NCBI GenBank assembly: GCA_018671515.1
Contig: JABHHN010000062.1
Location: 13,746 to 77,745, forward strand
DNA from: an archaeon
GTDB lineage: Archaea; Nanobdellota; Nanobdellia; Woesearchaeales; GW2011-AR15
DNA length: 64,000 bases
Direction: 5' to 3'
Shown here piece after piece: positions 6,134-50,187 of this stretch. Within the stretch, counting starts at the first letter, position 1. Each line of letters begins with the position of its first letter. A program made the translations under genes and the position numbers. The notes below the pieces were generated by a model that was not told the DNA's origin, did not search any database, and was given only the letters and a program-made list of their open reading frames with translations.

Positions 6134-7315
6134 TTATGTTTTATAAACAGAAGCTGCGTTTGCAGGTATACAATAATGAGGTGGATCCCATTCTGGCCAT
6201 GGATGAACTATTCCTAATTCCTCTGTGATTTTTATTACTTCAAGAGGCAAATCAATCCAATGAAAAGAATCTAATGATTTAGTAGGATCATTCAAATAAA
6301 GATCTACTGCATATCCTGTTTGATGTTGACTATATCCTGCTTTAGCTGTTGGATAACCTTTTTTTTTATTTTCTATATATAAGTTCCCTTGATCCGAATA
6401 TGATCTATAACCTTGTAAAGCATGTACTGTATAACCTTTCTCTTTTGCTTTTTTAACTAACTCATTTAGAATATGTTCAATATCTGGATGAATTTCTATT
6501 TTATTACTAATACCTTCATTTTCAAATATAGTTTTAGCATTAAGTACTTGATCTTCTCTCCAAGGTGTGTTTATTGGTCCACATCCATAATCCTCAAAAG
6601 TTGAACTTCCTGATGAAATTAGTTGATTTTCATTATTCTCTGCTGCTTCACATTGCTCTGTTGTAAAAACTTCTCCATTGGAATCATCACAATCCTCATT
6701 ATTCAAAGAAAATTTCTGTTGTGCAAAATCTAGCTGTGTTGGTTTATCATCTCCACTACAACACAAATAAATTTCTCCATCTATACCATGACCATCTCCA
6801 TCTGTATCTATATAATATGGACCTTGTGGATTATATCCCGAAAATCCTAAATTCTCACAAAAATCCACTACTTCTGTTTCTGTTTTTGTTGTTGCACTAG
6901 TTATCCAACATTTACCTTCTCCTGTGCTTCCAGTTGGTATTGGTTCAGGTTCTAAAGTTGGTTGTTGTTCTGTTGGTTCTATAGCTACTGGTTCATTAGT
7001 ATTCTCTTTACCTGTAACCCATTGCGTAATTCCACCTACAGTTACTCCTACTGCTGCACATGCTGCAATTACAGGTACCCAAGATATTGCTCCACCAGGA
7101 ACAAATGTAAGTATTCCTGCAATTACTCCTCCTACAACACATCCACCCACTCCTACTCCTATTGTCAAACCACCTATAGCTGAACCAGTAATATCAGCCA
7201 TAGTATTACCTGTAACTTCATTTCTTAGTTTACTATCTTCTGCATATGCAAATATACTATTTAGAATAATCAAGATTCCAAAAATTACAAATATTTTTTG
7301 TTTTGCTTTTTTCAT
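6134..7315 (-). CDS. Membrane-anchored exported protein with C-terminal peptidase M15 (VanY/D-Ala-D-Ala carboxypeptidase-like) domain
   Basis: Signal/anchor MKKAKQKIFVIFGILIILNSIFAYA. A Gly-rich multi-helix hydrophobic segment follows. Conserved Cys module FCENLGFSGYNPQGPYYIDTDGDGHGIDGEIYLCCSGDD. The C-terminus carries zinc-peptidase motifs SQHQTGYAVD ... VHPWPEWDPPHY (H-x6-D ... E-x-W-H pattern of M15). Confidence 0.6.
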   Translation of the reverse strand: MKKAKQKIFVIFGILIILNSIFAYAEDSKLRNEVTGNTMADITGSAIGGLTIGVGVGGCVVGGVIAGILTFVPGGAISWVPVIAACAAVGVTVGGITQWVTGKENTNEPVAIEPTEQQPTLEPEPIPTGSTGEGKCWITSATTKTETEVVDFCENLGFSGYNPQGPYYIDTDGDGHGIDGEIYLCCSGDDKPTQLDFAQQKFSLNNEDCDDSNGEVFTTEQCEAAENNENQLISSGSSTFEDYGCGPINTPWREDQVLNAKTIFENEGISNKIEIHPDIEHILNELVKKAKEKGYTVHALQGYRSYSDQGNLYIENKKKGYPTAKAGYSQHQTGYAVDLYLNDPTKSLDSFHWIDLPLEVIKITEELGIVHPWPEWDPPHYCIPANAASVYKT

Positions 7316-8498: not shown

Positions 8499-11400
8499 TT
8501 ATGGTGTATTCAAACAAGCACATACGTCATTATTTTTTTGATTGCAAACACTATCTGATATTGATGTACATACACCTTGTCCAGTACATATTGAACCAAA
8601 CTGTTTTTCACATTTCCTTTTGCAATAACAATCGGCTCCATTATCACCACATATTGTTTCAGTTTTAACATCAATACATAAAGTTTCTTCTTCATTTATA
8701 TCAGGACATGGTTTTGAATTATCACAAGAATATGAACATAAAGGATTAAGCCAAAAATGACCACCTTGCTTTAAGCATTCAAAATTTTCTCCACAAAAAT
8801 CATTACCTAAATTTTTACAATTTTTATCAAAATTAGGATTACTAATCCCATTTTCTACAATATCTTCTGGTGTTCCCCAATTTGTTCCAACACCATAATC
8901 ACAATTCTCTTTAAAATCTTCATACTCTCCTTTTTCTGTACCACATTGCACATAATATCCATTTTCTGGAGTTGAAATTAATGCTTTTCCAAAAGTACAA
9001 CTACCACTACTTATTTTTGATATAGCACACCAATCTGTACTTTCTGCATCTGGATCTGATGATTCAAGAGCATAAAATAAATCAGCTTTACAATAACACA
9101 TATTATCATTTACTTCTTCTACTGCTTCACAGACATTCATATCACATTTAGCATTATAATTTTCTCTATTTATTGTTTCTACTGCTTCCCCAATGTCTGC
9201 TAACTTTTCAACTAAAGCATGCCAAGCATCTTGTAAAACTCCACCAGTACCAGCAGCTGTTGATACATCATATTCATCAATATGTTTTTTTCCTTCATCA
9301 TCATCATCACCAAATGTAATAATTCCGCAATTTGCATCTTTAGCATCTTCAACTTGTGGACATTGACCTAATCCAATACCTCCACAAAAACAATATCCTT
9401 TATCTCCACCTTCTTCGCCACCATCTGGAATTTCGCCACCATCATCTGGAGTTTCTCCACCTTCTGGTTCTTCTTCTGGTGTTTCAGGTTCCTCTTCAGG
9501 ATCATCATCACATTCAATACCACATTTCTCTTCCATCTCATCAGTACATGCAGCTTCAATATTTTCCTCACTGCATATATCTTCATATTCACCATGACAT
9601 GTATCTTCATCATATCCTTCTATAGATGAATATCCCCATTCTGAATCATCATTTTCACAAATTAAGCAAATCCCACCAAACCAAAACAAATTGTTCTCAT
9701 CTATTTCTCCTTCTTCTTCACATACTTCATATTTTCCTTCACAAGTCTCAAATATTATTCCTTCTTCTCCAGGTTCTGTTAAATCAAGGCTTAAATACTT
9801 GAAAATATCATCATCTTCATTTTCAGTTATTGCTCCTTGTATCTGAGTACATCTTTTACATATTCCTTCGCCATAATCTTTTAAATCACCTAATTCATCA
9901 TTATCACATTCTTCATCAACCAATGCAACACAGCCTTCCTCAGTTTCTATTTCTGAATTAAGTAACCATGAATAATCTTCTACTTCTGCTACAGATTTTA
10001 CTTGACATATCCAACAACCATTTGGAAGTGGAGTTTCATCATCATCATCAAAAATAATATTATCAACATTTTGCTTATTGCAAACTTGTTCAGGAAATAT
10101 TTTTTCACAACACACAGAACTTACTCCACAATACATTTCAGGTAATGAAATTCCTTGCTCCAAAATACAAAGATCATCAGACTCCACACCATCTGTATTT
10201 TCCATACAAAACCTATCATCATTGTCTTCTCCTTCAACAACACAATCTTCTGGTATTGTAAGTTGATCGTCATCAGGAGGAACTAATATATTTGGACCAG
10301 GTACACATTTTAATTCTGATTCTTCTGGATTAAAATCTTCAAGCACACCTGCATTACAAAAATGTTTAGGTGGTTCTAATGTTGTTGGATTATTGCAATA
10401 ATACCAATCACCTTCTGATATGCTACACTCAAAGGTTAAACAAGCATCTCCAAACATTGGCTCTACATTACCTTCATTACAATAATAACAAAGACCATAT
10501 TTCCCATTTCCTTCATCAAAATAACTTTCATCAAAATAAGTCATACCTGTTTTAATATCCAAATCTGCTACTATTTCTTCTCTTGTATCTTCATTTACAA
10601 CAGTATATGTACCAATACAATCAGTTATACTTGGTTTTGCTCTACAGCTAATTGTATTTTCAGGTGGAGTTTCTAAAAATTCACCATTACAACAATACAT
10701 GAATTCATTATTAGCAGTAGGAACATAAACATTGTTTTCACCATTTGTATTTTCATCTGACCCTAATTTTAAACAAGTACAATCTTTGTCAGACTCAGAG
10801 ACAATATCTGGGCATGTTTTTGTGCCCAATTGACAGGATCCACCATTAGGACTTAATGTACCAGTCATTGTTCCATCATCATATATTATTTCACTACATT
10901 CCAATAACGCATTTTCAACTATTGTTTTATCCACTTCATCTAATAATATAATTCTTGATCTTAAATCTTCAAAATCACATAATGTAATTTCATTTGGTTC
11001 ATTATAATGTCTATTTGAAAATAATCTTGAAAGGAACAATGTTTTTTGTTCTTCGTCAACTGTACCATCAACTTCTGGAAATTCTTGATTAATTACATCA
11101 ATAAAAGTTCCAAGACATAATTCTTCACCAATAATTTCTGAATCTTCATCTATAATTGCTGAATCTTCATCTATAATTTCAGAATTTAGACAATCTCTTA
11201 GATATTCAATTCTTCCCTCTAATGTTGTTGAACATTCATCAATTCCAACAATTCCTTTTCCTGCAATCCTCAATACAAAATTGGTCCACAATGTTGTATC
11301 ATAAATTCCATTTCTTGGATAATTTACTGAATTAACATATATTTTGTTTTCACCAGAAAGTACTTCACTGCTCCCATCACCCAATCTTAATGGTCCTGTA

Positions 11401-13628
11401 ATTCCAAATGTTTCAGGATTTAATCTAATATATGAAATATCAGAAGATGTTGCTCCTACTTGTAAATTCTCTTCAGATGTATCAGTTTCAAAAAAAGCAT
11501 ATCTTTCTCCTGCCACATCTTCTTTTGAATAATAAGTATCATCGGGTAAAAATTCATCATTATCAATTACTACTGTTTCGACATATTTTTGATTATCATG
11601 TATAAAATAATTGTTTTCTCCAAAATCCCCACCAGGTAAAAATTCAAATGGATTTGAACTATATAATGCACTCAATATAATAGCTCTAGAATTGATTCTA
11701 AAATCATCCAACCAAATTATTCTTTCATCATCACCTTCATTGATAATCATAGGTTCATCAGCTGGTTTAAGTGAACAAGCATTACCAAATGTTAAAAGTT
11801 CAAAACTCAATTCACCTTCAAAACTTACAGAATCAATCTGATTTGGTTGATAAAATTTATCAAGACCTGATATTTTTTCTTTATTTGCATCAATATATCC
11901 ATAAGTCATAGGAGTTGCATAAAATGGTGCATTGATTCCATTATTAGGATATCCTAAAGACTCTCCAAAATAGTAAGGATATTCAATTGAAACTCCTCTT
12001 TTATTTTGTAAGTTATTATAATTTAATATAGGTGTAGCTGAAAGAATTGTAGAACCAATATGTAAATCACAAGTATTTGCATTATTACAAACACATTGTG
12101 CTCTATCATTAATTCCATCTCCACTAATATATTTTTCAACAAAAGAAATAAATTTTTCTTCATCAGTTTCTCCATTTAATGCAATATTAATATCTTCACT
12201 TGTAAAATATTCAAATAAATCTCTTTTTGCCATTTCAGAACAAGTATCATAACATAATTCATCATCTACATTTCCTGATGTTAAACCACAACCTTCGACT
12301 GCTTTTATTCGTTGACTGGGTAAATCTTCTGCACTTTTTACAGGAATCCAATCATCCTGATCCCAATCATTTAGCAACAATCCTTTATTTTCACAAAGAT
12401 GATCTCTAAAATCATTATTTTTCTCATAATTTGAAGGAATTGGATATTTTTCAATACTATATATAATATCATCATCAAATGTACAAGTCGCTTCACCCAT
12501 ATATTCTGGATATAAATGAAGACCGTTTCTTGTTGTTGGCAATTGAATATGTGTACACTTCTCTTTTTTATCCAATGCTTTATTTTCATTCCATTCTTTA
12601 AATTCAACAATACTACAATATTCTATAAGTCCATCTAAATTCTCAACCCATCTATTCCTATCACTTGGCTCAATTAGATTTATGAATTTATTAAGAACTG
12701 GTAAATTGTAATATCCTGTTTCTTGTGAACCACAATCTACAACAGCTACTTCTGTAAAATGATCTACTAATGCAACTACTTGATAATATGTATTTCCATC
12801 ATATGTAACTTTTTCTACTTTCTGTGTTTCATATGTTCTCCAAAGTCCTGTTCTTCTATCCCACCACCCTAATTTTAGTTCTTCTGGTGGATAACCTTTT
12901 GGTATTTTTTCTTCCAAAACATCTACAGTAAATTTAATTGGTGGATCAAAGATTGCACCATCAGGTGTTCCTTCATATACTACTGAACCAATTACAACTT
13001 TATTATCAAGACCATCAAAATTATTATCTAAAACTGAAATTGCAACTTTATCAATTGACGCACCACCATAATCTTTAACTGTAGTATCTTCACTAAAAAA
13101 TAATGTTGACCTACCATCACTTGATTTTAAGAATGTATTTTTTTTTATAAGACCATTTTCAGTCCTTATCTCAATTGAAACTGGAATCCTAAATTGAAAT
13201 TCATTTAGTTCTAAAATCTCTTCACTTTTACTAAGTTTTATTGGATAACTAATTTTTACAAATATAGAATCAGGAGAAATTTCTACATCTGCGTCAACAT
13301 CTCCCTCTTCAACCTTATACCCTGAATCTTTAAACAATCCATACTCTCCCGTACATTCTTTTAAATTATTTTCAATCCATGCTTCATAAATATTTTCAGT
13401 ATTATAAAGACCATATAATTCCTTTGCAAAAAGTGTATTTTGCTTAAGGCATTCTGTCACATAGAAATTAAGACTATCTTTAGCAAATGGAAATTGTCTG
13501 ACATCATCTGAATCCCTTTGAAGACCTGATTTTAAAAAAATGTCTTTAAAATAAAATGACATAATTACTGATATAACAATTATTAATCCAATTATTACAA
13601 ACTTTGTTACTTGAGATTTCTTTTTCAA
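8499..13628 (-). CDS. Giant (1709 aa) cysteine-rich extracellular surface protein, N-terminally membrane-anchored
   Basis: Single uninterrupted ORF. N-terminal anchor KFVIIGLIIVISVIMSFYF. More than 100 Cys in the C-terminal two thirds, as clustered CxxC/CC motifs. Acidic linker DDDPEEEPETPEEEPEGGETPDDGGEIPDGGEEGG. Internal 27-bp tandem repeat encoding IIDEDSAIIDEDSEII. Confidence 0.6.
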   Translation of the reverse strand: MKKKSQVTKFVIIGLIIVISVIMSFYFKDIFLKSGLQRDSDDVRQFPFAKDSLNFYVTECLKQNTLFAKELYGLYNTENIYEAWIENNLKECTGEYGLFKDSGYKVEEGDVDADVEISPDSIFVKISYPIKLSKSEEILELNEFQFRIPVSIEIRTENGLIKKNTFLKSSDGRSTLFFSEDTTVKDYGGASIDKVAISVLDNNFDGLDNKVVIGSVVYEGTPDGAIFDPPIKFTVDVLEEKIPKGYPPEELKLGWWDRRTGLWRTYETQKVEKVTYDGNTYYQVVALVDHFTEVAVVDCGSQETGYYNLPVLNKFINLIEPSDRNRWVENLDGLIEYCSIVEFKEWNENKALDKKEKCTHIQLPTTRNGLHLYPEYMGEATCTFDDDIIYSIEKYPIPSNYEKNNDFRDHLCENKGLLLNDWDQDDWIPVKSAEDLPSQRIKAVEGCGLTSGNVDDELCYDTCSEMAKRDLFEYFTSEDINIALNGETDEEKFISFVEKYISGDGINDRAQCVCNNANTCDLHIGSTILSATPILNYNNLQNKRGVSIEYPYYFGESLGYPNNGINAPFYATPMTYGYIDANKEKISGLDKFYQPNQIDSVSFEGELSFELLTFGNACSLKPADEPMIINEGDDERIIWLDDFRINSRAIILSALYSSNPFEFLPGGDFGENNYFIHDNQKYVETVVIDNDEFLPDDTYYSKEDVAGERYAFFETDTSEENLQVGATSSDISYIRLNPETFGITGPLRLGDGSSEVLSGENKIYVNSVNYPRNGIYDTTLWTNFVLRIAGKGIVGIDECSTTLEGRIEYLRDCLNSEIIDEDSAIIDEDSEIIGEELCLGTFIDVINQEFPEVDGTVDEEQKTLFLSRLFSNRHYNEPNEITLCDFEDLRSRIILLDEVDKTIVENALLECSEIIYDDGTMTGTLSPNGGSCQLGTKTCPDIVSESDKDCTCLKLGSDENTNGENNVYVPTANNEFMYCCNGEFLETPPENTISCRAKPSITDCIGTYTVVNEDTREEIVADLDIKTGMTYFDESYFDEGNGKYGLCYYCNEGNVEPMFGDACLTFECSISEGDWYYCNNPTTLEPPKHFCNAGVLEDFNPEESELKCVPGPNILVPPDDDQLTIPEDCVVEGEDNDDRFCMENTDGVESDDLCILEQGISLPEMYCGVSSVCCEKIFPEQVCNKQNVDNIIFDDDDETPLPNGCWICQVKSVAEVEDYSWLLNSEIETEEGCVALVDEECDNDELGDLKDYGEGICKRCTQIQGAITENEDDDIFKYLSLDLTEPGEEGIIFETCEGKYEVCEEEGEIDENNLFWFGGICLICENDDSEWGYSSIEGYDEDTCHGEYEDICSEENIEAACTDEMEEKCGIECDDDPEEEPETPEEEPEGGETPDDGGEIPDGGEEGGDKGYCFCGGIGLGQCPQVEDAKDANCGIITFGDDDDEGKKHIDEYDVSTAAGTGGVLQDAWHALVEKLADIGEAVETINRENYNAKCDMNVCEAVEEVNDNMCYCKADLFYALESSDPDAESTDWCAISKISSGSCTFGKALISTPENGYYVQCGTEKGEYEDFKENCDYGVGTNWGTPEDIVENGISNPNFDKNCKNLGNDFCGENFECLKQGGHFWLNPLCSYSCDNSKPCPDINEEETLCIDVKTETICGDNGADCYCKRKCEKQFGSICTGQGVCTSISDSVCNQKNNDVCACLNTP

Positions 13629-16712: not shown

Positions 16713-16829
16713 GCGCCGGTGGTCTAATGGCTATGATTTTGGCCTTCCACACGTTAAAATCGAAGATTCACTGGATCTTCAACTACGTGAAGATAGCCGA
16801 CGATCTGGGTTCAAATCCCGGCCGGCGCA
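16713..16829 (+). tRNA. tRNA-Gly (anticodon UCC) with a 45-nt intron at the canonical 37/38 position
   Basis: Acceptor stem GCGCCGG/CCGGCGC, discriminator A. T-arm CTGGG-TTCAAAT-CCCGG. D-loop with GG. Anticodon stem TTGGC/GCCGA with loop CUUCCA|A. Exon 1 is 16713..16749, intron 16750..16794, exon 2 16795..16829. Mature length 72 nt. The intron 5' CACG can pair with CGTG near its 3' end (BHB-like). No encoded CCA. Confidence 0.75.
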
Positions 16830-37286: not shown

Positions 37287-40004
37287 TTAAGAAATATCCA
37301 AGTCCTTTAATGAATCTTCAAGAAGTTTCATGTATTTACCTATACCTTCCCAATCTTGATTCTCCATCGCTTCCATTGCTTTATTATAATATTCAAGTGC
37401 TTCTGATGTTGAAGGAATTTCACCTGTTTCTCCATTATCTTCACCATCATCATCATCTGATATTTTAATGTATTTTCCAGCATACAATGCATTTAGAGCT
37501 GACTCGAAATCCTTTTCCATGACAATTCTATTGCCATAAGAAAGTAAAATTCTTTTTAGCTCAGGTATTTCACCATTATCTGCTGTTATATATAATGGTT
37601 CAATGTAAAGCAGTGTATTTTCAATTGGAATCACCAAAAGATTACCTCTTATGACATTTGAACCTCTCTGGCTCCACAATGTCAATTGTTCTGAAATCTC
37701 TGAGTTCTGATCGATTCTTGCTTCAATCTGTGATGGTCCAAATACCAATTTGTCTTTTGGAAATTTGAAAAGAACTAAATCATTATTGACATTATTATCA
37801 TCAATTGTAATTCTTCCTGAAATCCAAGCAATCATGTTATCTTTATTTACAGGTGTGTATGGTGTAATTATTACATATTCTTCATCATCCATATCTGGAA
37901 GTTTTAATAATACATAATAAGGAGTCATAACTTGTGATGTTCCCTGTCCATAAATCTCGTTTGGTATATCCCATAGATCTTCTCTATTATAGTATACTTT
38001 AGGATCTTTCATATGATATGTTGCAAAAATATCTACCTGAACTTTAAATAATTCTTCAGGATATCTAAAGTGACTCCTGATACTTTCTGGAACTTCACTT
38101 ATTGATTTTACAAGTCCTGGAAATATCTTTGAATAAGTCTGAATCAATGGGTCAGTTGGATCAGTTAGATAAAATTCAACAGTACCATCATACGCATCCA
38201 TTACAATTTTTACAGAATTTCTTATATAATTGAAATTTGATGTTGGATCTGAATAAGGGAATCTATTTGATAATGTATATGCATCCTGTATCCATTTTAT
38301 TCTTCCATCAACCACAACTACATATGGATCACTATCAAGTGCCAAAAATGGTGCTATCTTTGAAATCCTTTTCTGTACCTGCCTGTTAAATAATATTTTA
38401 CTTTCATCATTTACTGCACTATTTAGAATAATGTTGATGTCTGAAAAATACATTGCCAGGAAAACTTTTTTGAAAAATGAATCTACTTTTACTCCACCGT
38501 GTCCTGCGTAGTTTGTATATTCATTTAAGTCACCTTTTGGATAATCAAATTCTTCTATTTCAGTGTCAACAATAACAAAATTATTTGCAATTTCCCCATA
38601 ATAAATTTCAGGTCTTTCTATTTCAAAAGTTTCACTAACTGGAGGGATATCTTTAATTAATAATTCTGGAAGTCCTTCTTTAGATATTTTGTTTACTGGA
38701 CTCATTACTACACCATAACCATGTGTAAAAACCATGTGTTCATTTATCCAAGTTTTAGCTTTATCTCTTAATTGAGTATGATCAAGTTCTCTTGCTGAGA
38801 GCATTACTTGTGTTTCTTCTCCATCTATATCATATTTTCCTATATCAACATCATAGAAATCATAGTATAATCTTATTTCCTGAAGTTGTTTATATGTTTG
38901 TTTTAGTGGTCTCCAATCAAGTATTCTTAATTTTTTTATTGCTTCTTCATTATCTCTTAATACACTTTCTTTAGGTTCATCTACAACATCAAAAAATGTT
39001 TCTTCTACTTTATCTAATCCATATGCAATATTTGTATATTTTATATTGTGCTTGATGTATTCTTCTTCTAATGAGAATTCATTTGGATTTACTTTAAAAG
39101 ACTGAACAAAAACTGGAACAAACTGACTTGCAAGAATTGAAATCATATAAAGTCCTACTAATGTAATTAAAACATGACGTCTTTTGATTTTTTTTGATTT
39201 TACAAATATCCTTATAATAAAAATTACTGATATCATTATTGAAAAAATCACAAGTAAATTTGCTATTGGAAGTGATACATTTACATCTGAGAAACCTGCT
39301 CCAAAAACAACACCTGCTTTTGAAAAAAGAATATTAAATCTTGATAAATAATGTTTTATTGCAGCTAATATAAAAAATAAACATCCAAAAATAAATAGGT
39401 GATTTTTTGCACCTATTGTTATGTTGAACTCCATATTTTTTTTATATGCATTCATATCAATTGTTTTTCCACTTTTTTCAGTCACATTAGGTGCCTGTGA
39501 AGTAAAGAATTGTTTAATCTCTTTCCACAAATAAATCAATGAAATCCAGATTAGATTTATTACAAGAATTACACCTAAAATATTAGTTACAAAAGATATG
39601 AAAGGAAGTGCGAAAACATAATAACTGATATCTCTTGAAAATATTGGATCGACAATGTTAAATGCAAATCCATTTAAATATTTAAGATAGACATCCCAAC
39701 CTAAGGAGGCAACACTTCCTACAAAAAAACTTGTAGCCAATCCAACAGGCAGAGATAATTTTGAAAAAAATGATTTTTTCTTGTGCATTGCAATAAAATT
39801 ATTTAGGAAAAATATTGCTAATGAAACACCAAAGAATATTATAAAAAGAGTGATTTTAGCCTTAATCGGAATAATAAATAGATCTTTATATCCTGTTGAA
39901 TCAAACCACATATAGTCTACAATAAAAGTGACTATCTGCTGCCAAAAAATAAATAAAAGGGCAATTATCATTAATGTAAAATTAAAAGAATTTTTTGTTT
40001 TCAT
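37287..40004 (-). CDS. Large polytopic membrane protein with big extracytoplasmic domain (UPF0182/COG1615-like architecture)
   Basis: 905 aa. About 7 TM helices in the first 290 aa are followed by a ~600-aa soluble region. Family assignment is by architecture only. Confidence 0.45.
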   Translation of the reverse strand: MKTKNSFNFTLMIIALLFIFWQQIVTFIVDYMWFDSTGYKDLFIIPIKAKITLFIIFFGVSLAIFFLNNFIAMHKKKSFFSKLSLPVGLATSFFVGSVASLGWDVYLKYLNGFAFNIVDPIFSRDISYYVFALPFISFVTNILGVILVINLIWISLIYLWKEIKQFFTSQAPNVTEKSGKTIDMNAYKKNMEFNITIGAKNHLFIFGCLFFILAAIKHYLSRFNILFSKAGVVFGAGFSDVNVSLPIANLLVIFSIMISVIFIIRIFVKSKKIKRRHVLITLVGLYMISILASQFVPVFVQSFKVNPNEFSLEEEYIKHNIKYTNIAYGLDKVEETFFDVVDEPKESVLRDNEEAIKKLRILDWRPLKQTYKQLQEIRLYYDFYDVDIGKYDIDGEETQVMLSARELDHTQLRDKAKTWINEHMVFTHGYGVVMSPVNKISKEGLPELLIKDIPPVSETFEIERPEIYYGEIANNFVIVDTEIEEFDYPKGDLNEYTNYAGHGGVKVDSFFKKVFLAMYFSDINIILNSAVNDESKILFNRQVQKRISKIAPFLALDSDPYVVVVDGRIKWIQDAYTLSNRFPYSDPTSNFNYIRNSVKIVMDAYDGTVEFYLTDPTDPLIQTYSKIFPGLVKSISEVPESIRSHFRYPEELFKVQVDIFATYHMKDPKVYYNREDLWDIPNEIYGQGTSQVMTPYYVLLKLPDMDDEEYVIITPYTPVNKDNMIAWISGRITIDDNNVNNDLVLFKFPKDKLVFGPSQIEARIDQNSEISEQLTLWSQRGSNVIRGNLLVIPIENTLLYIEPLYITADNGEIPELKRILLSYGNRIVMEKDFESALNALYAGKYIKISDDDDGEDNGETGEIPSTSEALEYYNKAMEAMENQDWEGIGKYMKLLEDSLKDLDIS

Positions 40005-44097: not shown

Positions 44098-44217
44098 ACT
44101 CCCCCTTTAAGGTATAATAGAATAGCCTTCGGCTTAAAATAAGAAAAATCCTATTTGTAATACTTCATCACACTTCAAAAAGATATTTAAATAATTGGTC
44201 TATCTCTTATCCCCACA

Positions 44218-45282
44218 ATGCCACATAGAAAAATGTTTACAGTTGGACCTGTTGAGGTCTTTCCTGAAATCCTAGATATTATGTCAACACCAGTAGTAGG
44301 ACATAGGACAAAGGAATGTTATGAATTATATGCACGAATCAAAGTAAAATTACAAAAAATTCTATACACAGAAAATAGATGTTTCATATTTGCTTCATCA
44401 TCATCTGGTATCATGGAAGCTGCAGTTAGAAATTGTGTAAAAAATAGATGCCTTAATTTAGTTAATGGTGCTTTTTCAGAAAGATGGCATAAGATGACTA
44501 TTTCAAATGGAAAATCAGCAGATAGACTTGATTTCCAGTGGGGTTCCCCAATTGAAGCATCAAAGGTTGATGAAGCATTATCATCAGGTAAATATGATGC
44601 TATGACTTTTGTTCATAATGAAACATCAACTGGTGTAATGAGTCCGATTGCTGAAATTACAGAAGTGATGAAAAAATACCCTGATGTAATTTTCTTAGTT
44701 GATACAGTATCTTCAATGACTGCAACAAAAATTGAAGTAGATAAGTTAGGAATTGATGTTTGTCTTGCAGGAGTACAAAAAGCATTTGCATTACCTCCTG
44801 GTTTAGCAGTTGCGTCAATTTCTGACAAAGCTATTGAGAAAGCAAAGACTGTTGATAATAGAGGGTACTATTTTGACTTTTTAGAATTATTGAAATATTA
44901 TGAAAAAGATCAATATCCAACAACACCACCTATATCAATAATGTATGCACTTGATTTCCAATTAAATAGAATGATTATCGAAGGACTTGATAATAGATAC
45001 AAAAGACATAATGACATGGCAAACATGGCAAGAGAATGGGCACACAAAAAAGGTTTTAAGATATTTCCAAAAGAAGGATATGAATCTGTAACACTTACAT
45101 GCATCAATCATGAAGGAAAAGTAGATGTTCCAAGCATGAAAGAAAAATTAGCCCAAAAAGGTTTTGAAATATCAAGTGGATATGGAAAAACAAAAGAGGT
45201 TACATTTAGAATTGGTCATATGGGAGATATTGGAGTAAATGATTTAAAAGAATTATTAGAAATAATGGATGATTTAATATGA
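44218..45282 (+). CDS. Class V aminotransferase (phosphoserine/serine-glyoxylate aminotransferase type)
   Basis: PLP fold-type I. FVHNETSTGV, and the PLP-Lys context GVQKAFALPPG. Overlaps the downstream serA start (ATGA). Confidence 0.7.
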   Translation: MPHRKMFTVGPVEVFPEILDIMSTPVVGHRTKECYELYARIKVKLQKILYTENRCFIFASSSSGIMEAAVRNCVKNRCLNLVNGAFSERWHKMTISNGKSADRLDFQWGSPIEASKVDEALSSGKYDAMTFVHNETSTGVMSPIAEITEVMKKYPDVIFLVDTVSSMTATKIEVDKLGIDVCLAGVQKAFALPPGLAVASISDKAIEKAKTVDNRGYYFDFLELLKYYEKDQYPTTPPISIMYALDFQLNRMIIEGLDNRYKRHNDMANMAREWAHKKGFKIFPKEGYESVTLTCINHEGKVDVPSMKEKLAQKGFEISSGYGKTKEVTFRIGHMGDIGVNDLKELLEIMDDLI

Positions 45283-46232
45283 AAATCATTATATTAGACA
45301 AAATAGATAATTCAGCAATAGATATGTTTAAAGAAAGTTTTGAAACAGATGTCAAAACAGGTCTTTCTGAACAAGAAATAATTGATATCATTAATCCTTA
45401 TGATGCAGTCGTTGTAAGAAGTGCAACAAAAATCACTAAAAAAATAATTGATGCAGCACCTAATCTTAAATTAATAGGAAGAGGAGGAACAGGTGTAGAT
45501 TCAATTGATATAAAGGCAGCAACAGAAAAAAATATTGCAGTCATGAATACACCAACAAGTAATTGTATTTCAGTTACAGAATATGTAATTGGACTTATGA
45601 TTGGAGCATCTCGAAATATCATTTTTGCAAATAATAAATTAAAAGAAAATATTTGGGCAAAAAAAGAATCAAAAGGATATGAACTAAAAGATAAGACATT
45701 AGGAATAATTGGTTTTGGTAACATTGGCAAAGAAGTATGTAAAAGAGCAATTGCTTTTGATATGACTGTTCTTACATATGATCCATTTATAGATAATGAA
45801 ATAGTTAAAAGTTTTGGTGCTAAAAAAATGGAGATTGATGAAATAATCACCAATTCAGATTATATCACATTACATATTCCATTAATTGATGCAACAAAAA
45901 ATCTTATTGATTCAAAAAAACTTGAATCAATGAAAAAAAATGCTATCTTAATAAATTGTGCAAGAGGAGGAACAGTTGATGAAGATGCACTATACACTGC
46001 ACTAAAAAACAATTCAATAAAAGGTGCAGCTCTTGACGTATTTGCAAATGAGCCTCTAAAAAATAGTAAATTATGTGAACTTAATAATATCATATTGACA
46101 CCACATATTGCTGGTTCAACACATGAAGCCCAAGCGAGATGTGGAACTGATTTAGTAAAACAATTTCTATATTTTTTCAATAATGAATATAAAAACATTC
46201 TAAATTTAAAAGATATAAAACTTGGTGATTAA
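45279..46232 (+). CDS. serA: D-3-phosphoglycerate dehydrogenase (D-isomer 2-hydroxyacid dehydrogenase, short form without ACT)
   Basis: NAD-binding GIIGFGNIGKEV. Catalytic R/E/H context (NCARGG, TPHIAGST). Homology to the SerA catalytic core. Confidence 0.75.
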   Translation: MKIIILDKIDNSAIDMFKESFETDVKTGLSEQEIIDIINPYDAVVVRSATKITKKIIDAAPNLKLIGRGGTGVDSIDIKAATEKNIAVMNTPTSNCISVTEYVIGLMIGASRNIIFANNKLKENIWAKKESKGYELKDKTLGIIGFGNIGKEVCKRAIAFDMTVLTYDPFIDNEIVKSFGAKKMEIDEIITNSDYITLHIPLIDATKNLIDSKKLESMKKNAILINCARGGTVDEDALYTALKNNSIKGAALDVFANEPLKNSKLCELNNIILTPHIAGSTHEAQARCGTDLVKQFLYFFNNEYKNILNLKDIKLGD

Positions 46233-46233
46233 A

Positions 46234-47052
46234 ATGGATATGCCTAGAATAAAAATTATTTCAATGGATGATGTTGATGTCCATGAACATACTGATAACG
46301 CTAGAGTTGATAGATTAAGATATTCAATCAAACGAGATGCAAAAATCAGAAATCCAGTTATAGTTTCAAAAATTGCCGATAAATACATGATTCTTGATGG
46401 TGCAACTAGACATGGTGGTCTAAAAAAACTTGGAGCAAAACACATATTAGCACAAATTGCAGATTATGATAAAGATGATTTAACACTTGATACATGGGAT
46501 CATGTAATAACTGGAATAAAATTTGTCGATTTTTTAGAAAAAGTCAAAAAAATTAAAGATGTGACAATTGAAGAATCATTTCAGGCAATGGCTGAAAAGT
46601 CACTTGAAAAAAAAGAAATATTTGGATATTTTATTCTAAAAGAGGGAAAAACATATACTGTAAAATGCCCTATGGATTATGAAAATATTGTCAGAATAAT
46701 CTGTGAAATAACTAAAATATATACTAATGAAGAAGAAACAGTAAGAATTGTACACGCACAAATTGATGATTATCTAAGAGTGTCTGATAATGAGACTGCA
46801 ATTTTTTGTACACCTAAATTTACAAAAGAAGATATTAAAGAAATTTTTAACATGGGTCTAAAAGTTTCAGCAGGAATAACAAGGCATCTTATTCCTTGTA
46901 GAATATTAAATGTAAATCTGGGACTTAATCTTCTGATCAATGATGATACTACTGAATCAAAAGCAAAATATCTTGATGAGTTCATAGATCTGAGATTAAA
47001 ACATGGTAAAGTCAGATATTATTCAGAACCAACAATTGTATTTGATAATTAG
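46234..47052 (+). CDS. ParB/sulfiredoxin-fold protein, candidate SerK-like ADP-dependent serine kinase
   Basis: N-terminal IKIISMDDVDVHEHTDNARVDRLRYSIKRDAKIRNPVIVSKIADKYMILDGATRHGG follows the ParB/Srx N-domain pattern. The ATG is 2 nt after the serA stop. Function is inferred from fold plus operon context. Confidence 0.4.
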   Translation: MDMPRIKIISMDDVDVHEHTDNARVDRLRYSIKRDAKIRNPVIVSKIADKYMILDGATRHGGLKKLGAKHILAQIADYDKDDLTLDTWDHVITGIKFVDFLEKVKKIKDVTIEESFQAMAEKSLEKKEIFGYFILKEGKTYTVKCPMDYENIVRIICEITKIYTNEEETVRIVHAQIDDYLRVSDNETAIFCTPKFTKEDIKEIFNMGLKVSAGITRHLIPCRILNVNLGLNLLINDDTTESKAKYLDEFIDLRLKHGKVRYYSEPTIVFDN

Positions 47053-47116
47053 AGTTTTATTTTTATATTCTTATAATTTTATTTCTAAATTTTTTTCTTT
47101 TTCATCAATATTCTAG

Positions 47117-47182
47117 TTGTGCCAGAGCAAGGCATTCTGCCTCGCAAATTCCCTGCATACGGCAAAGCCCGATGCTATGTAG
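47117..47182. ncRNA. GC-rich structured island, candidate small ncRNA
   Basis: ~60% GC in a ~25% GC intergenic region. Contains hairpins ggca-ttc-tgcc and gcatacgg-caaag-cccgatgc. Strand unknown. No tRNA or C/D box signature found. Confidence 0.3.
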
Positions 47183-47403
47183 TAAAAAAATAATTATAAT
47201 AAACTTACATAAAAAAAATATCATTTTAACTAAAATTAAAAGATTGGGAAGATTTATATAATTTAATCTATTCTCTTTTCTGATGAAATACAAGTCTATA
47301 TCGGGTTCTTCGATTTAATTCTTATTATTAGACTATTAATAACAACAATTTTTCAATAAATTTTTTATTTACAAAATATTTTAACAAAACAAAGGTGATA
47401 TGA

Positions 47404-48675
47404 ATGCTCGATATTAAACTCATTAGAGAAAATCCAGAAATTATAAAGAAAGATCTTGAAAAAAGAGATAAATTAGATTTAATCAAAAAAGTAGATGAAA
47501 TAAGAGAATTAGACATCCTTTGGAGAGAAAACTTGCAGAAAGTTGAAAAATTAAAACATCAAAGAAATGTTTTATCTCGTGAAGTTGCACAATTAAAAAA
47601 GGCAGGAAAAGATGCAACTGAAAAATTAAATCTAGTAAAAGAGATTCCAAAAAAGATTGTAGATGTAGAAGAAAAAACTGATTCAATACAAGTAAAAATT
47701 AAAAAAATCATGTTCCAACTTCCAAACATATTACATGATACAGTTCCAGTAGGCGCTGATGATACACAAAATGTATCTGTTAAAAAATGGGGAAAACCTA
47801 GAAAAGACAAGACAATTAGTCATGTTGATCTATTAGAAAAATGGGATGTTGGAGATACTGCACGTGGTGCAAAAACAAGTGGTTCAAGATTCTATTTCTT
47901 AAAAAATGAATTAGTAATGCTTGATATGGCACTACAGAAATTTGGTATGGATCATATGATGAACAAAGGATTGATACCTATGATTCCTCCATATATGTTA
48001 AGAAGAGAAGCGTATGATGCTATGACTTCAATGGATGATTTTGAAGAAGTCATCTATAAAATTGAAGATGAAGATTTATACTTAATTGCAACATCTGAAC
48101 ATCCAATTGGTGCTTATCATATGAATGAAACAATTGAAAAAAAAGATCTGCCGTTAAAGTACGCAGGTATATCTCCTTGTTTTAGAAAAGAAGCAGGAAG
48201 CCATGGAAAAGATACAAAAGGAATCTTTAGAGTTCATCAATTCCACAAAATTGAACAATTTGCTTTTTCCATGCCTGAAGACTCATGGAAGATACATGAA
48301 GAACTTCTTGCAAATGCAGAAGAATTATTCCAAAAACTTGAAATCCCATATCAAATAGTAAATGTATGTACTGGTGACATGGGTTCAATTGCAGCAAAGA
48401 AATATGATCTTGAAGTATGGATGCCTGCACAACAAAAATACAGAGAAGCAGTATCAAATAGTAATTGTACTGATTACCAGGCAAGAAGACTAAATACCAA
48501 ATATCTTGATGGAAGCAAAAGAGATTATGTCCACACATTAAATAGTACAGCATTTGCTACATCACGTGTCATTGTTGCAATAATGGAGAACTTCCAGGAT
48601 GAAGATGGAGTAATTAGTATACCAGAAGCATTATGGCCATATATGAACGGGATAAAGAGTATTGGTAAGAAGTAG
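47404..48675 (+). CDS. serS: Seryl-tRNA synthetase
   Basis: N-terminal coiled-coil arm. Class II motif 2 (FRKEAGSHGKDTKGIFRVHQFHKIE) and motif 3 (TAFATSRVIVAIMEN). AGGTGA lies 5 nt upstream of the ATG. Confidence 0.9.
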   Translation: MLDIKLIRENPEIIKKDLEKRDKLDLIKKVDEIRELDILWRENLQKVEKLKHQRNVLSREVAQLKKAGKDATEKLNLVKEIPKKIVDVEEKTDSIQVKIKKIMFQLPNILHDTVPVGADDTQNVSVKKWGKPRKDKTISHVDLLEKWDVGDTARGAKTSGSRFYFLKNELVMLDMALQKFGMDHMMNKGLIPMIPPYMLRREAYDAMTSMDDFEEVIYKIEDEDLYLIATSEHPIGAYHMNETIEKKDLPLKYAGISPCFRKEAGSHGKDTKGIFRVHQFHKIEQFAFSMPEDSWKIHEELLANAEELFQKLEIPYQIVNVCTGDMGSIAAKKYDLEVWMPAQQKYREAVSNSNCTDYQARRLNTKYLDGSKRDYVHTLNSTAFATSRVIVAIMENFQDEDGVISIPEALWPYMNGIKSIGKK

Positions 48676-48849: not shown

Positions 48850-50187
48850 ATGTTTAAGAAAAGGTATCAACAAACATTCTTAATTGGATTACTAATATTA
48901 CTCTTGTCTTCCACTGTTTTTGCTATGGACGTGCCATTTGAGGTTGTGAAAACAAAAGTTGTGGCAGAAACTACTGTTATTGCAGGCGGCGAATCAATGG
49001 TTAAAGACGGAATTCTTGTTGATTTTCCTGAAGTACCTAGTAAAGACGGATATGACCCTAGAGTTAGAATTCCTACAGAGGGTGTTAATTATAAACTTGA
49101 GTTTTGGAATGTTGGAAAAATGGGTGGTTCAAAATGGTCTATTTTTAAGTCAGGTTATGAAAAAGCAAAACTAACTATTACTTATGAAACAGGACAAGCA
49201 TATAAGTTACAAGGCACAGGAGAGAAATTTATGGATATGGAATCAGTAGAGAGTGTTGATGTAAGAACTCCTAATTTTGAAGACACTTTAAGCTATGATA
49301 TCTGGTTTACTGGAGGTCCTTATGGGAAATTCTTTCACACAGATAAAAACGGAAAAACTATACAGATTGCATATATTGAAAACGGAGAATATATCCACTT
49401 TACAAATATTCCAGAAAAAAAACATCTTCTGTATTATAATAATGCACTTATACAAATAGAAGATAGCTCAGCCTTTGAAAAATGGTTAGAAATTCTAAAT
49501 CAACAACCTGGTTGTATTGATCCTAGTGACCCTAAAACAGATAGTGGGTGGAGATTTACTGATTATGAAGGGGAAGTTATGGTTCGTCCTTGTGACGATG
49601 AAGATGCTTGGTATGGTGCAGAATTGGATATGGTATTACACAGAAGCGACCATATTAAAAATGGTGAGGATAGTACCTGCAGTATAATGTCAACTGATAT
49701 GTTTCTTTTTATTATGAATAAACCAGAATCTGAAATCATTTTAACCTATTCTGAACAAGAAAGTAATGCACACGTAATTTGGGGAAAAATAAAGGTTAAT
49801 GTTAAACGAATGTTAAAAGATGGAACAATGGATGTTGAGATGTCTCAAGCGGTTGCAGGAATTAAAGGCACTATTTTTGTTGTTGAAGAAACAGGAACCG
49901 AATCAACCCTCAAAGTTATTGAGGGAGAAGTCGAATTTACAAGTAAATCAAATGGAAAGTCTGAAATGGTTGGTGCTGGTGAAATGATAACTGCAACAAA
50001 GAAAGGTTTAGAAAAAAAGAAAAAATTTGATATTGCTAAAGAAAACGCTACTTGGGAAAGCAACGAAGCAATGATTAAAGATATTAAAAACAAAAATAAT
50101 TCAAAAGGTTCATTCTTTTTTCTAGTGATAATTTTATTTGGAGTTATTGGTGTAGGTTCATTTTATTTTAAAAAGCAAAAAAAATAG
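48850..50187 (+). CDS. Hypothetical surface protein (signal peptide plus C-terminal TM anchor)
   Basis: N-terminal signal LIGLLILLLSSTVFA. C-terminal anchor FFFLVIILFGVIGVGSFYF followed by KKQKK. Confidence 0.45.
   Translation: MFKKRYQQTFLIGLLILLLSSTVFAMDVPFEVVKTKVVAETTVIAGGESMVKDGILVDFPEVPSKDGYDPRVRIPTEGVNYKLEFWNVGKMGGSKWSIFKSGYEKAKLTITYETGQAYKLQGTGEKFMDMESVESVDVRTPNFEDTLSYDIWFTGGPYGKFFHTDKNGKTIQIAYIENGEYIHFTNIPEKKHLLYYNNALIQIEDSSAFEKWLEILNQQPGCIDPSDPKTDSGWRFTDYEGEVMVRPCDDEDAWYGAELDMVLHRSDHIKNGEDSTCSIMSTDMFLFIMNKPESEIILTYSEQESNAHVIWGKIKVNVKRMLKDGTMDVEMSQAVAGIKGTIFVVEETGTESTLKVIEGEVEFTSKSNGKSEMVGAGEMITATKKGLEKKKKFDIAKENATWESNEAMIKDIKNKNNSKGSFFFLVIILFGVIGVGSFYFKKQKK

Follow-up and report, generated by a model that had tools for sequence, protein, structure and literature searches.

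Three adjacent genes in a 64-kb stretch of DNA from an AT-rich archaeal genome (contig JABHHN010000062.1; the whole stretch is hereafter called the window) probably form a node of O-phospho-L-serine (OPS) metabolism, the third of them encoding a free L-serine kinase that would act together with a co-transcribed phosphoglycerate dehydrogenase (PGDH) and a class-V aminotransferase. The genes lie at 44218-47052 on the + strand in operon-like packing. The first (44218..45282) encodes a 354-aa aminotransferase of the class-V AGXT/SGAT type, the second (45279..46232) a 317-aa short-form D-3-phosphoglycerate dehydrogenase (SerA), and the third (46234..47052) a ParB-fold protein, the putative free L-serine kinase of the SbnI/SerK family that is the main subject here and that I call the window kinase. 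At NCBI the three products carry the labels 'alanine--glyoxylate aminotransferase family protein', 'hydroxyacid dehydrogenase' and 'ParB N-terminal domain-containing protein'. An earlier note on this DNA had described the three genes as overlapping or abutting, and they do: the SerA ATG overlies the aminotransferase TGA in a 4-nt ATGA overlap. Two of its figures needed correction, since the spacer between SerA and the third gene is 1 nt and not 2 nt (TAA 46230-46232, A 46233, ATG 46234), and the protein that starts at ATG 46234 has 272 aa instead of 273 (an upstream TTG would give 276 aa).

Profiles and a predicted fold place the third protein in the SbnI/SerK family

The NCBIfam models of SbnI (NF033589) and of archaeal SerK (NF053625) both matched the third protein over its full length, at 7e-26 (91.1 bits, equivalog cutoff 350) and 1e-18 (67.4 bits, equivalog cutoff 380), respectively, and among PDB sequences SbnI was found at 2.4e-15 and SerK at 3.7e-12. 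Both equivalog cutoffs are missed, and the protein would therefore represent a separate subfamily that is orthologous to neither characterised enzyme. Its architecture, in which a ParB/Srx-fold N-terminal domain is followed by a C-terminal domain and a C-terminal R-x-Y-x-E tail of the SbnI type, is by its sequence the closer to that of SbnI. When the protein alone was used as query, word-indexed searching gave two near-identical matches only; exhaustive HMMER searching yielded 934 cluster representatives, 41 of which were used to build a family profile. This profile matched SbnI at 9e-39 from end to end, the R-x-Y-x-E tail included, Thermococcales SerK at ~1e-20 over the core, and ParB/Noc at E >= 0.004 over the N-terminal domain only.

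The AlphaFold2 model of the window kinase (pLDDT 94.8, pTM 0.90) was compared with the PDB by Foldseek. SbnI (5ujd; E 3.6e-20, TM 0.78/0.83, 271 columns) and SerK (5x0b; TM 0.72/0.80) were its only full-length structural matches, covering both domains, while ParB, Noc and sulfiredoxin structures aligned over ~80 residues only, with TM ~0.25 for ParB/Noc. The profiles and the predicted fold together indicate that the third protein is a member of the SbnI/SerK free L-serine kinase family.

That it might be a genuine partitioning ParB, placed 3' of serA by chance, is an idea that can draw on the NCBI label and on a weak Pfam match to ParB_N (E = 0.0033, 17.9 bits, under the gathering cutoff of 26.3). 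What the protein has in common with ParB, Noc and sulfiredoxin is an N-terminal nucleotide-binding fold of ~80 residues with a DGxxR/GxxR motif. By contrast, the context of a ParA-binding motif is absent, neither a helix-turn-helix (HTH) or other DNA-binding domain nor a ParB dimerisation domain was detected by Pfam scanning or by Foldseek, and the partition-ParB model TIGR00180 scored 22.7 bits against a cutoff of 58.45. No match to the ParA-type ATPase family was found among the scanned window open reading frames (ORFs) near the operon. A true ParB identity is effectively refuted by the TIGR00180 score, the family-profile matches and the Foldseek result, and I give it practically no chance. 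The earlier note had instead taken the gene for a SerK-like ParB/Srx-fold member of a phosphoserine operon, a description with which profiles, predicted fold, catalytic residues, fusions and gene order agree. The outcome that the note had named as refuting it, alignment to a true partitioning ParB with HTH and dimerisation domains and no affinity to SerK, did not occur.

At the level of single residues, E18 of the window kinase (in H17-E18) aligns to E30 of SerK and E20 of SbnI; D55-G56-A-T-R59, a DGxxR motif, aligns to D69-G70...R73 of SerK and to D58-R62 of SbnI; and T216-R217-H218 aligns to T223-R224-H225 of SerK and to T201-R202-F203 of SbnI. The Glu, DGxxR and T-R-H positions are invariant or at least 90% conserved in the 41-member family alignment, and the window kinase retains every family-invariant residue, including the catalytic Glu. 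The titles of PDB entries 5x0e and 5x0j name E30A/E30Q mutants of free serine kinase; roles of SbnI E20 and D58 were reportedly described by Verstraete in 2018.

These residues also bear on the proposal that the third protein is a non-catalytic, nucleotide-binding regulator or switch of the serA/aminotransferase operon, comparable to SbnI in its role of heme-responsive transcription factor or to CTP-binding ParB-fold proteins. SbnI is annotated by NCBIfam as bifunctional, a regulator as well as an OPS synthase, a nucleotide-binding screen detected binding of CTP to an archaeal SerK-like protein (PMC12704722), and non-catalytic family members exist, as judged from two thermosome-adjacent proteins (P0004 and P0005) that have no catalytic Glu. 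The window kinase, however, keeps this Glu together with all the other invariant residues and has no detectable HTH or DNA-binding domain, and the fusions of its relatives to SerA or to a SAMP/CysO-like carrier are typical of pathway enzymes and not of transcription factors. A regulatory, non-catalytic role is therefore very unlikely.

Gene order and fusions link the kinase to SerA

The sampled part of the window kinase's own subclade is limited to the window, P0002 and eight fetched loci, and a scan of metagenomes for this subclade returned as its only match an identical sequence on a 1.6-kb contig. The aminotransferase-SerA-kinase arrangement exceeds chance, the order recurring in relatives whose kinases are 38-46% identical to that of the window. 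Locus L127 (kinase 38% identical) has the same three genes, and both the 4-nt overlap and the 1-nt spacer are found there too. A single 587-aa SerA-kinase fusion follows the aminotransferase gene in L001 (46% identical), and in L136 an aminotransferase gene lies 138 nt 5' of such a fusion, the two coming directly after genes for PGK, GlpX fructose bisphosphatase and class-I fructose bisphosphate aldolase. The upstream aminotransferase is of the same type as that of the window in L001 (64% identity), L127 (38%) and L136. In L134 a SerA-kinase fusion follows TrpB2.

SerA-kinase fusions, or fragments of them at contig edges, account for ~15 of the best 150 of the 934 representatives. Nine of them, of ~560-605 aa, are P0003, P0043, P0045, P0056, P0073, P0102, P0105, P0106 and P0150; P0076 (910 aa) joins three units, a threo-3-hydroxyaspartate/serine-dehydratase-like enzyme dependent on pyridoxal phosphate (PLP), PGDH and the kinase, and in P0133 a SAMP/MoaD-like (SAMP/CysO-like) carrier is fused to the kinase. 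The SerA-kinase fusions fall in at least three separate parts of a neighbour-joining tree of the family, which is a crude tree (Kimura-corrected p-distances, no bootstrap) that displays context clades and the scatter of the fusions and not the branching order.

Several other arrangements were seen among the relatives. Two long ORFs, in L073 (901-2655, 584 aa) and L090 (1989-5249, 1,086 aa), end in a kinase domain and have no domain at the N-terminus that could be recognised. They may be genuine fusions, or calling the longest ORF in high-GC DNA may have created them, and they were not counted as fusions. P0004 (L002, 1965-2768) and P0005 (L125, 1690-2505), which at 40% identity are among the closest relatives of the window kinase, are encoded directly 3' of a thermosome gene whose product is 70% identical to the window thermosome. 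The catalytic Glu is replaced in P0004 (H-A) and the H-E motif is gone entirely from P0005, and the two proteins may be non-catalytic paralogues. Finally, in the P0009 loci (L131, 6001-7573; L132, 2703-4275) the kinase gene is directly followed by a gene for a sugar/alcohol-phosphate nucleotidylyltransferase, with a 23-nt overlap in L131 and a 1-nt gap in L132. Both loci adjoin GT4 glycosyltransferase genes and L131 is also near a CDP-alcohol phosphatidyltransferase gene, a context that could reflect a nucleotide-activated phosphoserine or a phosphoserine-containing head group of a lipid or glycan.

Genes for OPS-consuming enzymes adjoin the family

The family comprises more than 2,150 clusters at 90% identity, predominantly from mesophilic Chloroflexota; most members are labelled 'hypothetical' and a few bear the JGI label 'L-serine kinase (ATP)'. 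Its genomic neighbours were counted at 119 species-representative loci fetched by means of a hand-built degenerate DNA motif, a neighbour being defined as a gene on the same strand within 3 kb. The loci were fixed 8-kb blocks that are not centred on the kinase gene, and all frequencies are therefore lower bounds. A CysM-like, a TrpB2-like or a SepRS plus a SepCysS gene stands beside the kinase gene at 48 or more of the 119 loci: CysM-like cysteine synthase at 28 or more, TrpB2-like enzyme at 19 or more, and SepRS plus SepCysS at one or more. Further neighbours are a JAMM desampylase and a SAMP/CysO-like carrier (at least 17 loci each), both of which often accompany the CysM-like gene, TrpRS (at least 11) and SerA (at least 4-5); no aminotransferase gene was counted among the 119 loci listed.

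The enzymes in question use OPS. CysM of M. tuberculosis uses OPS plus CysO (PMC11361707), TrpB2 enzymes are OPS-dependent according to the passage of PMC11917138 that cites Busch 2014, and SepRS loads tRNA-Cys with O-phosphoserine (PMC5424206). The occurrence around one family of three independent classes of OPS consumer and of two enzymes of the phosphoserine pathway is as expected if the family makes OPS.

The archaeal example is a locus of the metagenome-assembled genome (MAG) FT1_083, assigned to Candidatus Woesearchaeota (JAHWGX010000019.1, a contig shared with L099; L129, 4409-7949). Here a kinase gene lies between those for SepRS (459 bits, NCBIfam cutoff 381) and SepCysS (562 bits, cutoff 365), separated from them by 68 nt and 2 nt. 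The SepRS-kinase order is found in L130 as well, and no mention of a kinase gene within a SepRS/SepCysS locus was found in the 2017 survey of SepRS. The earlier note had thought of a kinase feeding phosphoserine into, for example, a SepRS/cysteine route, and this suggestion is favoured by the Woesearchaeota locus and by the consumers at 48 or more of the 119 loci. As a general layout of DPANN archaea, SepRS-kinase-SepCysS was rejected: the SepRS-SepCysS pair of an Aenigmarchaeota locus has no kinase gene (see below).

Two bacterial layouts were encountered repeatedly. Among loci L006-L124 (for example L024, L031, L040, L056, L060 and L121), from Chloroflexota, Armatimonadota, Bacillota and unclassified MAGs, a CysM-like gene directly adjoins that of the kinase, and L036 has the JAMM desampylase and the CysM-like protein fused into one; apart from the additional serine kinase, the layout is reminiscent of the mycobacterial mec-cysO-cysM system of phosphoserine-dependent cysteine synthesis. 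In Anaerolineae the recurrent order is TrpRS, TrpB2-like enzyme, a small MGMT-like gene at some loci, then kinase (L003, 3117-6840; L010, L013, L034, L079, L081 and L114). The linkage fits the phosphoserine dependence of TrpB2 and suggests that the kinase supplies the substrate of TrpB2.

The dehydrogenase is best matched by PGDH and the aminotransferase is a candidate phosphoserine aminotransferase

The second gene product matched Pfam 2-Hacid_dh_C at 8e-62 and the NCBIfam PGDH model TIGR01327 at 2e-114 (383 bits) over positions 1-312 of 525, that is, over the catalytic part only. Its catalytic and NAD domains are complete and the ACT/ASB regulatory domains are absent; it falls under the TIGR01327 whole-protein cutoff of 454 only because the model includes that ACT/ASB part. 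The next-best NCBIfam family was glyoxylate reductase PRK13243, with 231 bits. In the PDB the best 16 matches are all PGDH, headed by 1wwk (7.5e-79), and PGDH entries reach 268/250 bits (human PHGDH included) against ~188 bits for glyoxylate reductases. By sequence, a short PGDH is thus a clearly better match for SerA than any other D-2-hydroxyacid dehydrogenase.

The first gene product matched Pfam Aminotran_5 at 1.2e-21, has a PLP-lysine motif, GVQK(188)A, and has as its nearest solved relative PH1308 of P. horikoshii (PDB 2dr1, 8.9e-70). An archaeal phosphoserine aminotransferase of the class-V type, MJ0959, was reportedly described by Helgadottir in 2007. Because linkage to SerA and the kinase is conserved, and because there is an archaeal precedent in the class-V phosphoserine aminotransferase TK1548 (PMC5120207), the protein can be regarded, by analogy, as a putative archaeal-type phosphoserine aminotransferase.

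Both enzymes would have a different meaning in a non-phosphorylated route that leads from serine to hydroxypyruvate, glycerate and phosphoglycerate by means of a serine:glyoxylate/pyruvate aminotransferase, a hydroxypyruvate reductase and a new glycerate kinase, glycerate being serine with OH in place of NH3+. The nearest families of the aminotransferase are indeed AGXT/SGAT/BhcA-like and not SerC, the dehydrogenase fold includes hydroxypyruvate and glyoxylate reductases such as PRK13243, both curated serine-kinase models are missed widely, and L136 sets the module in a gluconeogenic cluster. The preference of the dehydrogenase for PGDH in both NCBIfam and PDB comparisons speaks against the route, as do the TK1548 precedent, the occurrence of kinases of this small archaeal clade between SepRS and SepCysS, two enzymes that require OPS, and the retention by the window kinase of all invariant residues common to the OPS-linked bacterial members. 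I consider the route quite unlikely, and return to the phosphorylated one.

Proposed function of the module

In the OPS node proposed here, the kinase would phosphorylate free L-serine on its side-chain hydroxyl, with a nucleotide as phosphoryl donor, and so yield OPS, with Glu18 as the presumptive catalytic base, like Glu30 of SerK. SbnI uses ATP, and ATP would be the likeliest donor because the window kinase resembles SbnI more closely. The kinase would drive scavenged serine into OPS essentially irreversibly, and the aminotransferase and dehydrogenase would link OPS reversibly to 3-phosphohydroxypyruvate (3-PHP) and 3-phosphoglycerate (3-PG). Two net effects, which may both apply, can be envisaged. 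Serine could enter central carbon metabolism and gluconeogenesis (Ser -> OPS -> 3-PHP -> 3-PG), which the gluconeogenic context of L136 favours, or OPS could be drawn from both serine and 3-PG and delivered to SepRS/SepCysS, TrpB2 or a cysteine synthase of the CysM type as a consumer encoded elsewhere in the genome, which the contexts of L134, L129 and the bacterial loci favour. Enzymatic activity, donor, aminotransferase substrate and direction of flux are all inferred in this scheme.

A number of observations weigh against the proposal. The scores with both curated kinase models are far under the equivalog cutoffs and identity to the characterised enzymes is 19-23%, so that substrate or donor could have shifted in the window kinase. 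The aminotransferase, a class-V enzyme of the AGXT/SGAT branch, is no canonical SerC (TIGR01364/TIGR01366; 69.5 bits with TIGR01366 against a cutoff of 401.65). Linkage to aminotransferase and SerA is restricted to a minority of the family, among the 119 loci listed. Family scans of the ORFs found no OPS consumer within the 64-kb window. The SepRS-kinase-SepCysS layout was seen in one lineage only, and an Aenigmarchaeota SepRS-SepCysS locus (L137-L139) has no kinase gene in between. As to the genome beyond the window, none of the accessions of SepRS homologues falls within the accession ranges of the window MAGs, most of the matches having no accession.

The most serious competitor assigns the same three genes to serine synthesis: the kinase-fold protein would replace the phosphoserine phosphatase SerB by running in reverse (OPS + ADP -> Ser + ATP or OPS + AMP -> Ser + ADP), and the operon would make serine from 3-PG. 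The three genes do span the phosphorylated serine pathway minus the SerB step, and, as the earlier note had remarked, no HAD-type phosphoserine phosphatase is visible: there is none among the ~46 window ORFs scanned, an absence that holds for 64 kb of genome only. The SerA-kinase fusions are equally compatible with a biosynthetic and a catabolic pathway, and serine synthesis might account for the neighbouring seryl-tRNA synthetase gene. There is also a precedent in the DUF1015 'SerBK' proteins, remote structural relatives of SbnI encoded in serA-serC operons, which are reported to replace serB in complementation and fitness data (bioRxiv 10.1101/2024.10.14.618325). However, the same source gives for the reverse kinase reaction an unfavourable equilibrium constant of ~4e-4, and the window kinase is not a DUF1015 'SerBK' member, no Pfam match to DUF1015 having been found in it at E <= 0.01. 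Moreover, the family-wide neighbours of the kinase consume OPS and not serine, and adjacency to serS is not conserved, serS having expression signals of its own. The forward serine kinase is therefore favoured over a phosphatase replacement, which is unlikely. Similarly unlikely is the idea that in a reduced DPANN-type genome the kinase-fold enzyme has become the reversed last step of serine synthesis, an ATP/ADP-regenerating substitute for SerB that arose independently of DUF1015 'SerBK'. A less radical variant has the kinase as a dedicated supplier of OPS for SepRS/SepCysS cysteine synthesis in DPANN archaea that take serine from their hosts.

Relation to known systems

Of the characterised enzymes SbnI is the best match to the window kinase by NCBIfam, by family profile and by structure, and its E20 and D58 align to E18 and D55. 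SbnI moreover supplies OPS to a dedicated downstream pathway, to which the role proposed for the window kinase can be likened. The two are only ~20% identical (91 bits against the equivalog cutoff of 350), and SbnI has T-R-F where the window kinase has T-R-H plus a 13-residue insertion in the C-terminal domain. SbnI belongs to a bacterial siderophore cluster, whereas the window kinase is part of a serA/aminotransferase operon in a DPANN-type archaeon.

SerK (TK0378 of T. kodakarensis, PDB 5x0b and others; 1vk1 of P. furiosus) has the same two-domain fold, with Glu30, DGxxR and T-R-H, but is 22-23% identical to the window kinase (67 bits against a cutoff of 380) and has no counterpart of the ~40-residue C-terminal tail common to SbnI and the window kinase family. 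It is an ADP-dependent free serine kinase in a proposed pathway from serine through OPS to cysteine or 3-PG, and in T. kodakarensis its gene stands outside any operon and away from both serA and the aminotransferase gene (PMC5120207). In the Desulfurococcales Staphylothermus marinus, S. hellenicus and Desulfurococcus mucosus, on the other hand, serK lies beside 3-PGDH and aminotransferase genes, partly in operons, and these clusters were interpreted as a serine-assimilation pathway (Makino 2016, PMC5120207). Of known systems these clusters come nearest to the window module as a whole, but they are from hyperthermophilic Crenarchaeota and encode close SerK homologues, while the window is from a low-GC (28%) DPANN-type archaeon and encodes an SbnI-like, C-terminally extended kinase. 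The S. marinus enzyme was reportedly found, by Mori in 2021, to be ATP-dependent.

The DUF1015 'SerBK' proteins (CDIF630erm_01132 of C. difficile, BT1151 of B. thetaiotaomicron) match the operon logic of the window, with their serA-serC operons, and have been proposed to be serine kinases for both serine use and serine synthesis (bioRxiv 10.1101/2024.10.14.618325). They are bacterial and belong to another protein family, and it is for DUF1015 that replacement of SerB was shown genetically.

Both the kinase family (SerK in 2016, SbnI in 2018) and the presence of serK in clusters together with 3-PGDH and aminotransferase genes are thus already known, and the earlier note overstated the novelty of the linkage in view of the 2016 report on Desulfurococcales. 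The new part is small yet real. A low-GC DPANN-type archaeon encodes an SbnI-like kinase with a C-terminal extension, for which there had been no useful public annotation, and the family is found widely among mesophilic bacteria, has been fused to SerA repeatedly and is located beside CysM-, TrpB2- and SepRS-type enzymes. No description of this wider family pattern was found in the searchable literature, outside of which lies Mori 2021.

On the reading preferred here, three generically annotated genes can be understood as one phosphoserine module, which changes the metabolic reconstruction of an uncultured archaeon of the host-dependent type. This archaeon probably activates scavenged serine, thereby linking it to 3-phosphoglycerate, to phosphoserine-dependent biosynthesis or to both. 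If the family as a whole consists of serine kinases, phosphorylation of free serine would widely feed phosphoserine-dependent synthesis of cysteine and tryptophan and would not be the speciality of hyperthermophiles that was suggested in 2016; it would also explain where OPS-dependent enzymes obtain their substrate when serine is abundant.

Expression signals, spacer and serS

Inspection of the + strand revealed a TATA-box-like element of archaeal type, TTTAAATA (44186..44193), ~25-30 nt 5' of the first ATG, which suggests that the operon is transcribed as a leaderless message; the three genes would be co-transcribed, probably from this promoter at ~44186. A GGTGAT Shine-Dalgarno-like motif (46224..46229, +) stands 4 nt 5' of ATG 46234. 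An oligo-T-rich tract (47053..47110, +) begins right after the stop codon of the kinase gene and is likely, from its composition, to be an archaeal transcription termination region that ends the operon. A scan for bacterial-type terminators found nothing at 47053..47110, and a scan for bacterial promoters gave 26 promoter-like sites against 33.5 expected, both models being bacterial and the host archaeal.

Downstream, at 47404..48675 (+), lies serS, which encodes a seryl-tRNA synthetase of the common bacterial/archaeal type (TIGR00414, 515.3 bits against an equivalog cutoff of 301.65); all four ORFs of note, those of the operon and serS, were verified on the + strand at the coordinates first claimed for them. 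The serS start is preceded by a GGTGAT motif identical to that of the kinase gene and at equal spacing, and the gene has its own A/T-rich 5' region. Judged by these signals, serS is probably a separate transcription unit. It is not beside the kinase gene in L001, L127, L129 or L131, nor is it among the called genes of L136, and the adjacency of operon and serS had accordingly been given too much weight in the earlier note.

The same note had described the spacer between the kinase gene and serS as structured and GC-rich. The 351-nt spacer has 23% GC overall. It does contain one GC-enriched patch (47118..47185), with ~46% GC over the 80-nt stretch 47111-47190. The word structured is not supported, as the patch does not fold significantly better than shuffled sequences (z = -0.56 on the + strand and a marginal -1.9 on the - strand). 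A 'structured GC-rich spacer' was rejected, as no tRNA, no Rfam family, no significant fold and no second copy of the patch was found, the last in the window or at any locus except the identical contig L133. The patch may represent a small RNA, encoded on one strand or the other, or may have no meaning at all.

Other features of the window

GC content is ~28% across the window, which also encodes archaeal Nre, a thermosome subunit, SRP54 and an archaeal-type AlaRS. Identical copies of window proteins are present in four NCBI MAGs, those that carry MBT3464000.1, MBT4646678.1, MBT6821872.1 and MBT7392282.1. The MAGs that contain relatives of the window thermosome, UPF0182 and kinase genes include a Candidatus Woesearchaeota, from which the host is judged most likely to be of the DPANN type. 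The sole tRNA detected in the 64 kb is a 117-nt tRNA found by Rfam (16713-16829, +; 46.5 bits) and missed by ARAGORN at bacterial settings, which is most likely an intron-containing archaeal tRNA. Four further ORFs are unusual for an archaeon: that of a protein with a VanY-type D-Ala-D-Ala carboxypeptidase domain (6134-7315, -), one of 1,709 aa (8499-13628, -), that of a 905-aa UPF0182 protein (37287-40004, -), which also occurs in the Woesearchaeota relative L129, and, directly 3' of serS, that of a FecR-domain protein with hydrophobic N- and C-termini (48850-50187, +).

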